A DNA stretch of 11,626 nucleotides from Candidatus Thorarchaeota archaeon (GCA_019057475.1 DXJO01000016.1:1-11626); one strand, 5' to 3'; shown: positions 776-8,442, counted from the stretch's first letter. The notes: generated by a model not told the origin, from the sequence alone. Program-made: numbers and translations.

Positions 776-961
776 GCTGTTGCAGGGAGTCTATCAGGAC
801 GGTCAGTGGAAGGCCGCGTCATGTTGAAGCAGAACGCGCTATCATGGATGGTCAGTGGAAGGGTGCGTCATGGTGGGTAAAGAACGTAATCACGGAAGAT
901 CTGTAAGAATCTTGCTGGGCTCCCGGAGAACAACACTGTATCCGAATTCGGCGCTTGCCAA
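776..961 (+). repeat. Dispersed composite element, copy I
   Basis: CTATCAGGACGGTCAGTGGAAGG at 791-813; GAACGCGCTATCATGGATGGTCAGTGGAAGGGTG at 832-865; right module TGGGCTCCCGGAGAACAACAC...ATCCGAATTCGG.GCTTG.CAA at 916-961 matches 7555-7600. Confidence 0.95.
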
Positions 962-1039
962 CTGGTAAGACATCATACATCTAGCGTTTTTCGCCAGGAT
1001 GTATTGCGTTGGTATGAGTCTACCATATCCTGCCCGGCA

Positions 1040-2032
1040 TTACTGATTCTCAATGGAATAACTGGTTTTCCTCTTATCATATCGAATGACAATATATGCG
1101 AGAGTCAACCATATAGGCACCAAGAAGATGAGCCCGAAAACTAGATTATCGTTGTTTGAAGCCGTTAACCAAGTACCCGTGAAAATGTTTCCAAAGAATA
1201 AAGCGAGAGGTGTCCAAAGTATCAACAATGGATAATGGAAGTTTCTGTTCGATGATATCGAAACTGCACACAAATATGGAATTATTGCCATTGGGATGAA
1301 AACTAGAATTACCGCAACAATGCCTAATGCTTCAACACCGTTATCGGGTGGATAGATAGGTTGTATCATTAAAAGGGTCATAATTACCATAATTAGAGCT
1401 TGAGTAAGGAGAATGCCCGATCCTATTTTATCTAGAATTTCTAAAGTGAATTTAGACTCTATTGAGAGTTGACCTGAGTCGAGTGTAGATTTTACAGCCT
1501 TCTTCCGAAAAGCACGATTCAGGAAAATTCCTATTATGACTAAACCAATACATACTTGACTGACGTAGATAGTGGGCAGTATCACAAGTTTCACTCTTGT
1601 CGTGCACCTGAAAGAGCTGAATACCCTAATTTCTTCAGGTCCATCATTGCGATAAAGAAGAATCCATGTCGAATTTACTGGTACGTCAACTGACCAGGTG
1701 TAACTGTTGATATTCTCAATAGACAGCACAAATGATGCGGCCTCACTATTTGACCATAATTCATAGTTCTCCAAATCACAGATGTATAGGTCAATGGTAT
1801 CATTAGATTCAACCATAACATCACCGAATAACACATCACCCCATCTGCAGCAATATTGCCAGGATGCGAACGAGTATGGCTCAATCCAGAATCTTGCTGC
1901 ATCAACAGGTGAGGGTGACTGTATTTCTTGGTTATTAACGGCAATGCTGGACAGGGGCATACAAAACACTATCAAAACTATAACAGATATCATTCTGAGT
2001 GTTCTCGAATAGCGGTTGATGAAAGACATCAA
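1040..2032 (-). CDS. Membrane protein: signal peptide, GOLD-like beta-sandwich domain, then about 5 TM helices
   Basis: 330 aa ORF with an N-terminal hydrophobic segment. The 'GDVLFGDVMVESNDTIDLYICDLENYELW...YTWSVDVPVNSTWILLYRN' pattern resembles archaeal emp24/GOLD-like domains (pattern recognition only). It is AT-rich relative to its neighbours. The start may be ATG at 2029. Confidence 0.8.
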   Translation of the reverse strand: MMSFINRYSRTLRMISVIVLIVFCMPLSSIAVNNQEIQSPSPVDAARFWIEPYSFASWQYCCRWGDVLFGDVMVESNDTIDLYICDLENYELWSNSEAASFVLSIENINSYTWSVDVPVNSTWILLYRNDGPEEIRVFSSFRCTTRVKLVILPTIYVSQVCIGLVIIGIFLNRAFRKKAVKSTLDSGQLSIESKFTLEILDKIGSGILLTQALIMVIMTLLMIQPIYPPDNGVEALGIVAVILVFIPMAIIPYLCAVSISSNRNFHYPLLILWTPLALFFGNIFTGTWLTASNNDNLVFGLIFLVPIWLTLAYIVIRYDKRKTSYSIENQ

Positions 2033-2157
2033 TAGAACAATCCCAATACCACAAGCGAATCAATCTGGCAATTATCAATGAAGTATTAATAGTATTGCGA
2101 TTGATTTTTACTTCTACTACGATTTTGCAGATTCCGGGTAGCTAACTAGCAAGGGAC

Positions 2158-2841
2158 ATGAATACCATGACTGGACGAAAACGTGGATTAGCAGTACTCC
2201 TGGTTAGCTTACTCGTAATGACAATGGTATTTGCAGTATACATACTCGAGTTTGGCTCTAAGGTAGACTCGTCTCGATTGCGATGGGGGGTGAGCGAAGG
2301 CGTCCAATACGTGTACGTGGTCAACGTCAGTGGTCTTAACATGACGGGCATCAGTAATGACAGCGTTGAGTGTCCTCTATCATTCGCACCCCTAAACAAC
2401 ACAAGAATCATCACGACAGTATCATGTCTTACAGACCTTCCCGGTCTCACAGATGCTAACTCATTCGCTACCGACGTAATTATCCAGACCAAGACTGAAG
2501 TCAGTTTCGAGAATGGAACAGGCCTATCTGAACAGTATGATGAAGCATTGGTGTCACTGATTTCCTTGACTTTGCTTCCCATCGGTGACTGGTCACTGAT
2601 TGATTCGTTATACCAAGATGAGGATTCAGAGCCGCCATTCATGAAGACCTGGTATATCGCCAAGCAACGTACTAGCTCCTTCGAGATTGGTTATACGTCG
2701 TATGGACCAGACTATGCAAGTGGTTGGAGTGGGAACCTATCTCTAACAACCGGACTGCCAAACTCAGCCAATCTGTGGGCGTGGAACGCCGTTGAGTCCT
2801 TCTCATGGACACTCACAATCACACTTCTATTGAATGATTGA
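2158..2841 (+). CDS. Membrane-anchored extracellular protein, family A paralog 1
   Basis: 227 aa, N-terminal TM. Motifs WGVSEG, FAPLNNT, KT...FENG, LLPIGDW..IDS and W.G..SLTTGLP are shared with 4376..5056 and 7623..8303. AAGGGA precedes the ATG. Confidence 0.92.
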   Translation: MNTMTGRKRGLAVLLVSLLVMTMVFAVYILEFGSKVDSSRLRWGVSEGVQYVYVVNVSGLNMTGISNDSVECPLSFAPLNNTRIITTVSCLTDLPGLTDANSFATDVIIQTKTEVSFENGTGLSEQYDEALVSLISLTLLPIGDWSLIDSLYQDEDSEPPFMKTWYIAKQRTSSFEIGYTSYGPDYASGWSGNLSLTTGLPNSANLWAWNAVESFSWTLTITLLLND

Positions 2842-3027
2842 GTGTGACCGTGTTTACATACTTAGCATTGCTTCTCAAGTTTTCTAATCTTCTCCATAAT
2901 CAGAACGTACCCTTGGATACCCCAAGCCCATTCCATACACCGTAATACCCTCCCTACTAAGCTTCATGGCTTCCTGCCTTAAGCGGCAGTTGCATGTTCG
3001 ACCTGTAGGAAGCTTTTCTTGTCTTTG

Positions 3028-3624
3028 TCAACTCTTGGGCCGCAATACACCTCGTTTCATAACAGCACCAATTACCACCATCAATGTTCCCACTCCAATG
3101 ATGGCCAGAACGGTTATGGGAGTCGGGTCAGGGTCTGGCCAGTTCCATGCGTAGGAGTGCTGAATGACATCGGAAACACTACTATAACCGAGTGTGTCGT
3201 TGGCCACGTACCGGATATCCCAGATATAGACTCCGGGTTTAGGGACTTCGACATGAAGGTATGCCGCATAACGAGACCTCGTTGAGTTCTCATCCATGTC
3301 CTGCATGGTGATGTTAGACCATTGATTCTCAGTCCGGTTTCTGTATGAGGCTATGACGGTTTCGACTCCATCTGAATCTTCAACTGTGACTGTGAAGGTG
3401 ATAATGGTTTCAGGATCATATCCATCTGCATAGGAATCGCCATAGCTTATGAATATGGGTCCCTGACCGTTGCTCAGTGCATAGCTGGACCTGAGAGAGC
3501 ATTGTGGCTCTTTGGTCCACGTAGGAGAAACACACATCAGGATGACCCAAGTAAGAACGGTCATCCTCAACAAGGAGATCCTTGCCATCACATCCACCAT
3601 TCCAGAGTATGTGTGACTCTCCAT
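3028..3624 (-). CDS. Cell-surface protein with an Ig-like domain and C-terminal TM anchor
   Basis: Signal-like N-terminus; 'TVTVEDSDGVETVIASY...WSNITM...Y...YVANDTLG' is typical of archaeal Ig-like surface domains; Pro-rich linker (WPDPDPTP), TM, basic tail. The true start may be ATG at 3588. Confidence 0.85.
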   Translation of the reverse strand: MESHTYSGMVDVMARISLLRMTVLTWVILMCVSPTWTKEPQCSLRSSYALSNGQGPIFISYGDSYADGYDPETIITFTVTVEDSDGVETVIASYRNRTENQWSNITMQDMDENSTRSRYAAYLHVEVPKPGVYIWDIRYVANDTLGYSSVSDVIQHSYAWNWPDPDPTPITVLAIIGVGTLMVVIGAVMKRGVLRPKS

Positions 3625-7343: not shown

Positions 7344-7351
7344 TATTTAAA
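7344..7351 (-). promoter_or_regulatory. Putative archaeal TATA box for 6937..7311
   Basis: TTTAAATA on the minus strand, about 33 nt upstream of the GTG start. Confidence 0.55.
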
Positions 7352-7383
7352 CCTCGGTCTGGAAGAATCTTGCTTCAGTAAGC

Positions 7384-7600
7384 CTATCAGGACGGTCAGT
7401 GGAAGGGTCGAGTCATGTTGAAGCAGAACGCGCTATCATGGATGGTCAGTGGAAGGGTGCGTCATAGTGAGCAAAGCGTGTGATCACAGATTGCCAGTGT
7501 AAGACTGAGATCCACGGGGGTGCTCTAACAGATATGTCCTCTTCGAGGGCCTTGTGGGCTCCCGGAGAACAACACGATATCCGAATTCGGAGCTTGTCAA
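7384..7600 (+). repeat. Dispersed composite element, copy III (most complete)
   Basis: 23-mer at 7384-7406, 34-mer at 7426-7459, degenerate third unit, GGGGGTGCTCTAACAGA at 7516-7532, hairpin GTCCTC-TTC-GAGGGC at 7536-7550, palindrome TCCGAATTCGGA at 7580-7591. Confidence 0.95.
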
Positions 7601-7622
7601 TAGCTGTTTCATCTTGCTCATA

Positions 7623-8303
7623 CTAGGTCACGAGTATTAGCCTGTTATTGATATAGACGCCCACGGAGTAATATTCAGAAACGTCCTCGGCTACTATGGG
7701 AATGCCAGTGGTGAGAGACACATTTCCGCCCCAACTAATAATGGCGTCACCTGGCCATAACAGATATCCGATGTAAAAGGAGTCCGCATAGGTCCTTGAG
7801 AGATACACTCCAGGATAGAACGCATCTTCCGTTTCGTTTGGATGAAGCGAGTCAAGAAGTGGCCAGTCACCAACGGGAAGTAGGCATCGATACAACAATC
7901 TGTTGATGTAGTCCCTGAACATAGAGGGAATCTCCGACTCGTTCTCGAATCTGCACTCAGTCTTGGAATAATTGAGGACTTCTTCTGCGAAGATATCACC
8001 ATCTATGACTAATGGTAGAGATGGGAGGTTTGTTACGTTGAACCTTACGCGGGTGTTGTTCATCGGAGCAAAGAAGGGTGGCCCCAAGATCATATTTGAG
8101 CTGTTTTCGGGGTCTATTGATTCCCTATAGCCGCGTATAACAACCAAGTAGACAAGTTCGTCACCCTCATTGACACCCCAGGTCAGACTGGATGCGTCTC
8201 TCAGATCAGATGGATTCCAGATTGAGAGAAGGCAGAAGGCAAGCAGGATGATTGTGGCAATCGTGGCAGCAGTCAACAGTGCGACACGGTTCCGTCTTGC
8301 CAA
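7623..8303 (-). CDS. Membrane-anchored extracellular protein, family A paralog 3
   Basis: 226 aa, N-terminal TM. Motifs WGVNEGD, FAPMNNT, KT...FENE, LLPVGDW..LDS and WGGNVSLTTGIP. Confidence 0.92.
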   Translation of the reverse strand: MARRNRVALLTAATIATIILLAFCLLSIWNPSDLRDASSLTWGVNEGDELVYLVVIRGYRESIDPENSSNMILGPPFFAPMNNTRVRFNVTNLPSLPLVIDGDIFAEEVLNYSKTECRFENESEIPSMFRDYINRLLYRCLLPVGDWPLLDSLHPNETEDAFYPGVYLSRTYADSFYIGYLLWPGDAIISWGGNVSLTTGIPIVAEDVSEYYSVGVYINNRLILVT

Positions 8304-8376
8304 GAGTCTGTCCCCAGAGTGATTATGCGGGTATGCAGAAGAACATTCCTTTCCACGTACGAGCCGGTTTGCGCAG

Positions 8377-8442
8377 AGAACGCGCTATCATGGATGGTCA
8401 GTGGAAGGGTGCACCATGTTGAGTAAAACGCGTAGTCACGGA
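8377..8442 (+). repeat. Dispersed composite element, copy IV (partial)
   Basis: Invariant 34-mer at 8378-8411 followed by CACCATGTTGAGTAAAACGCGTAGTCACGGA, homologous to 866-896 and 7460-7490. Confidence 0.93.

Follow-up and report, generated by a model that had tools for sequence, protein, structure and literature searches.

The short tandem repeats scattered over an 11,626-nucleotide stretch of DNA from a Candidatus Thorarchaeota archaeon can be read with high confidence, from sequence comparison, as pseudo-copies of the promoter and 5' half of tRNA-Gly(UCC) that mark a variable genomic island. The stretch (the window) is a complete 11.6-kb contig, C49, of genome G000 (3.34 Mb in 56 contigs). 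A first-pass annotation had described dispersed mini-arrays of 48-49-bp units with invariant cores and variable linkers, and its readings of the sequence are borne out. The 23-mer CTATCAGGACGGTCAGTGGAAGG recurs without change at 791, 6548 and 7384, and the 34-mer GAACGCGCTATCATGGATGGTCAGTGGAAGGGTG at 832, 6590, 7426 and 8378, with no match to either in 200 shuffles (chance expectation for such repeats, zero); CTATCA starts lie 48, 49 and 49 nucleotides (nt) apart, the three linkers agree letter by letter with those read earlier, and a decayed third unit is present at 8425-8456. Every copy in the window is on the + strand, between open reading frames (ORFs). Several parts had been overlooked: a unit at 660-701, decayed cores at 897-909, 7492-7504 and 8444-8456, and a right-hand hairpin module (CCCTC-TTC-GAGGG) at 6634-6652, 7516-7600 and 10784-10857, whose distal block also stands alone, without the hairpin part, at 916-961.

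The intact tRNA-Gly(UCC) gene of G000 is encoded on contig C21 (- strand, 106218-106292), where an array adjoins it at 106300-106490; because the gene is on the - strand, this array lies upstream of it. Read on the - strand, a unit has the form ..ATGAC.CG.GCCTTCCA/CTGACC, the slash marking the joint, and the tRNA over positions 21-37 reads ..ATGACCCGAGCCTTCCA/AGCTCG.. The two are identical at 16 of these 17 positions, and the match breaks between positions 37 and 38. The core, GGTCAG/TGGAAGG, is the anticodon loop (CCTTCCA, last base A37) fused to a constant CTGACC. The linker can be assigned in the same way: its two variable patches correspond to the 5' strand of the anticodon stem (the first) and to the D arm (the second), the conserved TCATG to the 3' strand of the D stem, and AACGCGC to what remains of the acceptor 5' strand. 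When 32 units from five genomes were compared with 62 tRNA strands, 26 scored best against tRNA-Gly(UCC) in the sense orientation, and the units divide between two anticodon-stem alleles known in the genus. The likeness extends beyond the tRNA itself, as window positions 748-790 and 6505-6547 are copies of the tRNA-Gly gene's own upstream region, including its transcription factor B recognition element and TATA box (BRE/TATA, CAACAACATCCTTAAAT), with the TATA mutated in both. Some arrays are headed by truncated tRNA 5' ends (nt 1-9 or nt 1-18).

We compared the tRNA-Gly(UCC) loci of 17 genomes of the family. Fossil units precede an intact tRNA-Gly(UCC) in G000 (C21) and G005 (C59), both of genus g1; in G007 and G022 of genus g2, with six units of 55-115 nt and two units, respectively; and in G011 of genus g6, with one. 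Without exception the stacks lie on the upstream side of the tRNA and share its orientation; partial copies are thus accompanied by an intact copy of the same gene. In the remaining twelve genomes, which represent ten other genera, the tRNA is preceded at 27-45 nt by no more than a plain promoter. With the whole element as query, four of the six other species in the genus gave matches, against none of 34 relatives at a greater distance. Units are dispersed among genes in g1 only, and in g2 they are confined to the tRNA. Within G000 the family is small, comprising two arrays on C21, further members on C51, C33 and C10, and partial modules on C9, C14 and C40, and several members sit at contig ends. 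The tRNA-Gly(UCC) gene of G005:C59 (L022:1867-1941), although apparently normal, went unreported by ARAGORN and was found by eye and BLAST.

Comparison between genera also indicates what a full unit looks like. One unit of G007 keeps its own promoter, CCTTAAAT, a 28-nt spacer and a near-complete 5' half (GCGGCCGTAGTCTAG..CCTTCCA); by this measure the full unit comes to about 106 nt, and the 48-49-nt units of the window are internally deleted forms. The joint common to g1 and g2 is CCTTCCAC-TGA-N2-3-(G/A)TCC. Units of G007 retain ATGA..CCTTCCAC-TGA..GTCC, although their middles no longer align; the junction has been kept in another genus while the rest of the unit has changed beyond alignment. 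Upstream of its promoter, the fossil-free outgroup G019 has ATGACCGTACCAGTATA, which resembles the post-junction CTGACCGTCCTGATAGA; the original duplication may thus have had its distal break in native sequence upstream of the gene.

The flanks of the units reassort at the core. For 31 cores we compared 20 nt on each side; among 65 pairs with a common left flank, the right flank was unrelated in 44 and the same in only 6, which places the breakpoints at the core. The 13-bp core is the exact point of reassortment, with TCATGTTG as a lesser one. An example is the 3' flank of the family of gene 144..647: with its core, GGCTAGTGGAAGG (689-701), it forms the window's first unit (unit A, 660-701, + strand), and the same flank and core follow paralogues or orthologues of the gene on G000:C51 and G005:C5, with a different right flank at each of the three places. 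Similarly, the orthologue of the window array at 8358-8456 (G005:C59:9436) keeps the core between other sequence types on both sides. This pattern fits recombination, deletion or duplication between the cores of one long stack, and it fits splicing by a dedicated enzyme equally well.

The annotation had taken zero substitutions in the cores, alongside several in the linkers, as a sign of selection. Invariant cores with variable linkers do describe the two unit types on which that statement was based, but not the units located through the hairpin module, in which the core is changed in 12 of 15 (counted by hand). Across the 32 units the core is 97% conserved against about 50% in the flanks, a comparison that is circular because the units were selected by their core. 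Most units located through the linker are flanked by intact cores on either side, and near-identical modules in different species are equally conserved in core and linker, with 36 linker bases identical between G000:C21 and G001:C192. The case for selection is mixed as well: the core is more conserved than the inter-core stretches and the junction is kept across genera, but copies in different species are equally similar in both parts. We regard a constraint on the joint, or its repeated re-creation, as real but unexplained. As evidence for an array of binding sites or of processed RNAs, the core/linker pattern does not hold.

Most probably the window comes from the variable island that lies upstream of tRNA-Gly(UCC). 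Four of its genes (2158..2841, 3028..3624, 5944..6498 and 7623..8303) have orthologues with 84-94% nucleotide identity on G005:C59, at most 10 kb upstream of tRNA-Gly(UCC), where their order and neighbours differ from those in the window. Between G000 and G005 the first cassette beyond the tRNA differs and the next gene is common. In G000, core metabolic genes (formate-dehydrogenase-like, FrhB-like, HxlR) lie downstream of the tRNA, and NosD-like and orphan genes upstream. The repeats lie between shuffled surface-protein genes and therefore mark a gene-shuffling hotspot.

As to what the units do, we lean, with moderate confidence, towards passive recombination joints: non-functional copies of the 5' part of tRNA-Gly(UCC) within a surface-gene island. 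A full unit (106-115 nt, still visible in g2) consists of about 33 nt of upstream sequence, the BRE/TATA, a spacer and tRNA nt 1-37, and the 48-60-nt units of the window are the same unit with internal deletions. Each stops at A37, joined to the same C-TGACC(R)TCC with which the next copy starts. The first junction may have arisen by partial tandem duplication at the tRNA-Gly(UCC) locus, with the upstream break in native upstream sequence, after which the stack would have grown through further gain and loss of units. In g1, accessory membrane-protein cassettes would have pulled the stack apart and been copied along with it, and the short identical cores would today act as joints at which island segments recombine, are deleted or are duplicated. 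We infer that recombination at the cores is passive, by short homology or slippage rather than directed by an enzyme, and that the units are probably neutral; nothing we saw points to a sequence-specific role for them, whether as RNA or as protein-binding site.

Several observations weigh against passive joints. The junction is intact in two genera while the middles of the units have decayed beyond alignment, which plain neutrality would not predict. The positions that vary are mostly those of the tRNA stems, and a single step separates several fossil alleles from real ones in other genera, a pattern that hints at repeated import of alleles rather than drift in place. Whether fossil stem alleles match real alleles more often than chance was judged by a rough hand count, and the result was not significant (about P=0.09). 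A core of 13 bp is short for ordinary homologous recombination. Finally, the fossils co-occur exactly with the end of a TnpB element in genera that do not form a clade in a quick aEF-2 tree, which suggests an active driver.

This element end, a block GGTGACGCTGGGC..GGAACACAGAAGTCC followed by a short variable stretch and then GTTCACTCA, is found on the downstream side of tRNA-Gly(UCC) in each of the five genomes with fossils and is absent from the 12 without. A TnpB-like gene (506-560 amino acids, PF07282) converges on the tRNA in G005, G007 and G011, and only a remnant of the element, its 3' flank, is left behind the tRNA in G000 and G022. The genes or flanks are found at G000:C21:106100-106217 (L042/L054), L022:67-1866, L078:12285-13940 and L081:1145-4875, 15-75 nt downstream of tRNA-Gly(UCC). 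A comparison of six copies places the end of the element immediately past GTTCACTC, at 15-75 nt from the tRNA, which thus lies beyond it, and predicts the tRNA trailer as guide. The same GTTCACTCA motif has been reported 3' of Asgard tnpB genes associated with aCas1 (PMC10691335). Those loci (Altae-Tran et al. 2023, PMC10691335) share with ours the short variable stretch and GTTCACTCA at the element end, but the paper has neither tRNA-derived repeat stacks nor a link to tRNA-Gly; conversely, no Cas1 gene was found beside the TnpB copies of G007 and G011, and the window has no tnpB. One TnpB copy of G011 is 92% identical in protein to that of G007, despite the different genera. In a quick, single-gene tree of aEF-2, g1 groups with g5 and g2 with g12; because the sister genera g5 and g12 have neither fossils nor the element end, g1, g2 and g6 are not one clade. 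The tRNA gene itself seems to have been exchanged laterally in some lineages: it differs by 11 bases between G000 and G005 (g1) and by 16 between G007 and G022 (g2), and is identical in three g3 species. Alleles differing at 11-17 of 75 bases (G007 versus G022, G000 versus G005, G016 versus G046) show compensatory stem changes. Large TnpB-like ORFs also lie beside tRNA-Leu(UAA) and tRNA-Lys(CUU) in G000 (C54:73723-75402 and around 173640-173813), and no fossil stack was seen upstream of the tRNA-Lys that has the adjoining TnpB-like ORF.

The TnpB link suggests either that the locus moved laterally or that it undergoes a cycle of replacement driven by repair. In such a cycle, an RNA-guided TnpB insertion sequence behind tRNA-Gly(UCC) would cut alleles lacking the element, with a foreign or sister copy serving as template for repair. 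After trimming back as far as the anticodon loop, which is universally conserved, the broken end would anneal at a core of the donor stack (CCTTCCA/CTGACC). The locus would gain the donor's units, cassettes and tRNA allele, and its old 5' half would persist as one more fossil. The stacks would then record a selfish, integrase-free, RNA-guided cycle that captures cassettes with the core as splice point, and in a bolder variant the units would even serve as guides against rival alleles. We consider this doubtful, at perhaps one chance in several. It would account for the strict association of fossils and element end, for the intact PF07282 genes adjoining the tRNA in three of the five genomes, for the presence of both features in three genera that are not sister groups while the sisters g5 and g12 have neither, and for tRNA alleles that diverge within g1 and g2 and not within g3; several anticodon-stem alleles occur among the fossils, and reassortment of flanks at the core is what the model predicts. 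Yet a guide taken from the trailer would direct the cut 3' of the tRNA rather than at 37/38, the element is reduced to a remnant in G000 and G022, and no more than about 300 nt separate fossils and element end, such that physical linkage during lateral transfer gives the same co-occurrence. The TnpB-like ORF beside tRNA-Lys is without fossils, the fossil-free genus g11 shows allele discordance too, and the tree is of one gene from a quick search. A different reading, in which the units are attachment scars of an integrase, strikes us as improbable. Elements would integrate in the anticodon loop of tRNA-Gly(UCC), each bringing a new promoter and 5' half and displacing the old half, and the 13-bp core would be a crossover site reused for cassette capture. 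The anticodon loop is indeed a classical crossover region, a 5'-half attB with the tRNA re-expressed from an element promoter has precedent (PMC8371274), serial integration is known to leave partial tRNAs in islands (bioRxiv 10.1101/2020.12.28.424599), and the constant core that reassorts its flanks and the truncated 5' ends heading some arrays would both be expected. However, the eight integrase matches in G000 (PF00589) include none beside any array, the integrase of the type on C1 and C17 is intact with no tRNA-like sequence inside, and blastx of the elements against all G000 ORFs returned only spurious ORFs over the repeats and no coding remnant. Tandem 48-nt units with nothing between them are not integrated circles, the fossil promoters are of the native tRNA-Gly type rather than that of an integrase, the core is without dyad symmetry, and the units of g2 are confined to the tRNA. 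No fragment and intact gene were found to bracket an integrase element, the neighbours being NosD-like, FG-GAP, solute-binding and orphan ORFs, nor was there one fragment per event with an element between, the units following head to tail at 48-60 nt.

That selection maintains the units as tandem sites, of tRNA-promoter origin, for a putative DNA-binding protein (a regulator or chromatin component) we rate as very improbable: the highly conserved core, the regular 48-49-nt spacing and the origin in a promoter region would suit such sites, but their orientation and distance relative to genes are inconsistent (arrays lie between convergent genes, behind genes and before them), the TATA copies of the window are mutated, many cores are decayed, and there is no known candidate protein. 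Least credible of all is a processed small-RNA array, which the annotation had proposed as loosely like mini-CRISPR (clustered regularly interspaced short palindromic repeats) or TIGR (tandem interspaced guide RNA) arrays, and which could also take the form of a C/D-box-like RNA or of TnpB guides against rival tRNA-Gly alleles. In its favour, units with two variable patches each recur periodically, their + strand is antisense to the 5' half of tRNA-Gly and co-oriented with the TnpB gene where one is present, and the - strand carries CUGA-N6-AUGAUAG, which resembles D'/C' boxes. The CRISPR/TIGR comparison nevertheless fails because the linkers are recombining variants of one sequence rather than spacers. 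Both kinds of array resemble ours in the regular recurrence of short conserved segments and in the variability of what separates them, but here the variable parts are homologous to each other and to the tRNA, arrays hold two to four units, and cas genes, tas genes and a repeat hairpin are all lacking. No CRISPR array was detected in the 56 contigs of G000 by a crude k-mer scan for periodic repeats in this incomplete genome, and no cas or Nop-domain gene was found among the ORFs of the window. The whole window gave no Rfam match at E<=1, and RNAalifold on ten two-unit stretches gave -8.9 and -0.2 kcal/mol for the two strands, with no covariation and no conserved fold. The box-like motif varies by unit (UGAUAG, UGAGAG, CGAGAG or absent). 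As guides against rival alleles the units fare no better: the window has no omega-RNA scaffold or tnpB, and against 18 sampled alleles every unit has at least one mismatch in 17 nt and 4-12 in 22, all diverging after about 17 nt.

Other candidate identities were considered and rejected on specific grounds. A CRISPR array has near-identical repeats and unrelated spacers, and the inter-core segments here align with each other and with the tRNA 5' half; for a TIGR-Tas array, the window ORFs contain no Nop-domain match and the two patches have just 2-8 alleles, which recombine. Integron attC arrays, including archaeal ones, are likewise co-oriented short sites between small accessory-gene cassettes, but our sites are derived from a tRNA, the units contain no inverted repeat, not even an imperfect one, genes lie on both strands, and no adjacent integrase (IntI) was found. 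Miniature inverted-repeat transposable elements or insertion-sequence derivatives would have terminal inverted repeats, which are lacking, and the copy boundaries vary by locus. For a box C/D small RNA, the - strand does have CUGA-N5-6-UGAUAG, with the second box variable or missing and no D box at guide distance. A coding role was dismissed since the 82-codon ORF at 658..906 has no Pfam match and is not kept in other copies, its frame being lost because a 1-nt length difference shifts it. A TnpB omega-RNA guide or guide array was rejected, as the window has no tnpB or scaffold and the scaffold at the tRNA loci ends before the tRNA. A scan of viral contigs with GGAYGGTCAGTGGAAGG gave nine matches, all in unrelated coding sequence, mostly giant-virus genes, and a scan for promoters and terminators of bacterial type, with models not suited to archaea, found nothing in the arrays.

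Partial tRNA copies at genomic islands are textbook knowledge. The displaced tRNA fragments of known islands (Islander, PMC4383910; tycheposons, 10.1101/2020.12.28.424599; Thermococcales, PMC9897764) resemble the units in being partial, co-oriented tRNA copies in a variable island that starts at the intact tRNA, with copies separating blocks of accessory genes. They differ in that the copies here are 5' parts with a promoter instead of 3' parts, stand in tandem with nothing between, share one junction (A37/CTGACC) and have no integrase. The pTN3-like archaeal integrases, of the Sulfolobus spindle-shaped virus (SSV) type, do use a tRNA 5' half as attB (Cossu et al. 2017, reviewed in PMC8371274), but no split or whole integrase gene lies beside our copies, the promoter is that of native tRNA-Gly, and the copies are tandem and short (units down to 48 nt). 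In the accessible literature we found no description of tandem stacks of promoter plus 5' half, of one fixed A37 joint, or of an exact co-occurrence with a TnpB end in three genera. What appeared to be a 'mini-CRISPR' becomes a readable stack of old tRNA 5' halves that dates and orders the rearrangements of an Asgard island. Should the TnpB link prove causal, it would reveal, in the archaea most closely related to eukaryotes, a way for RNA-guided nucleases to remodel host loci and take up genes with no integrase; otherwise the repeats are still a useful marker of a hypervariable surface-protein island and a caution for annotation pipelines.

Along the window, all repeat features are on the + strand. 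The contig starts in the tail of a right-hand (hairpin) module (1..70, CTCTTCGAG..GGGAACGTCGG), an 89% match to the hairpin-bearing G000:C14:303-348. Behind unit A, positions 702..790 hold a decayed fossil of a tRNA 5' end and leader, followed by the first copy of the tRNA-Gly upstream region; the stretch aligns with the sequence directly upstream of tRNA-Gly(UCC) in G000:C21 and G005:C59, with the BRE/TATA mutated to CAACAGCATCCTTTGAC on the - strand. Array e1 (791..865) consists of units B and C, with cores at 801-813 and 850-862 and a 5'-half-like linker at 814-838, and is followed at 866..961 by the decayed third unit (core remnant 897-909) and the solitary right-hand block (916-961), which holds the palindrome CCGAATTCGG and is 91% identical to 7555-7600. 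Array e2 (6505..6652) opens with the upstream-region copy, its TATA decayed (6505-6547), continues with units B and C, whose cores lie at 6558-6570 and 6608-6620, and ends in the first part of a hairpin module (6634-6652). In array e3 (7341..7600), units B and C (cores 7394-7406 and 7444-7456) are followed by a decayed unit D (core remnant 7492-7504) and the hairpin/right-hand module at 7516-7600, and in array e4 (8358..8456) unit C, with the 34-mer at 8378-8411 and its core at 8396-8408, is followed by one decayed unit (core remnant 8444-8456). A lone hairpin module, CCCTCTTCGAGGAC, at 10784..10857 adjoins the 3' end of gene 10897..11283.

The genes between these arrays are orphan membrane- or surface-protein cassettes, on the + strand at 144..647, 2158..2841, 3881..4237, 4376..5056, 5309..5947 and 5944..6498 and on the - strand at 1040..2032, 3028..3624, 6937..7311 and 7623..8303. 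The ORFs of the window are without Pfam family, save for a weak zinc ribbon and an ATP-binding cassette (ABC) transporter at 8978-10748. Three of the cassette genes (2158-2841, 4376-5056 and 7623-8303) are paralogues of equal length (226-227 amino acids) that are 35-36% identical, with an N-terminal hydrophobic segment, no Pfam family, and orthologues in G001 and G005. The last 12 or so codons of gene 10897..11283 (..CELYKIVCNSL) and the region downstream (window 10897-10935 down to 10784) recur at four other loci in G000, C10:400-470, C33:780-900, C33:3780-3900 and C40:4540-4620. Three copies are fused to the hairpin module and that at C33:3780-3900 is without it. The remainder of the protein is single-copy, and the recurring part looks like a displaced gene tail.

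Read depth along the window is uneven. In the sample holding 89% of the window's words (run X1) it ranges from 33 to 110, with about 33 at 3573-5622 and 8383-10656, about 70 at 842-2662 and up to 110 near 2717-3492, which could come from strain heterogeneity or collapsed island copies. No RNA run was listed among the sequencing runs that contain the window. Four DNA runs show joints at the repeats, of which at least one (6553>7440) is the paralogous C21 locus, and these joints were not used as evidence. Elsewhere in the genome, the contig end at G000:C4:7150-7531 is a simple tandem repeat built on GTTAACAGGAAGTTCACAGAATGTTCACA and not a CRISPR array. A tyrosine-recombinase gene is present as two 94%-identical copies that break at the same codon, at contig ends (G000:C1:9423-10103 and C17:3-686); the full gene, of 290 amino acids, is in G004:C64 and has no tRNA-like segment. 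Fragments resembling the 3' part of tRNA-Ala are spaced 1-1.7 kb apart on C21 (77251-77282, 78943-78968 and 80690-80708) and C9 (1783-1815 and 2727-2758), and look like a second, classical tRNA-anchored cassette array in G000, one built on 3' fragments.

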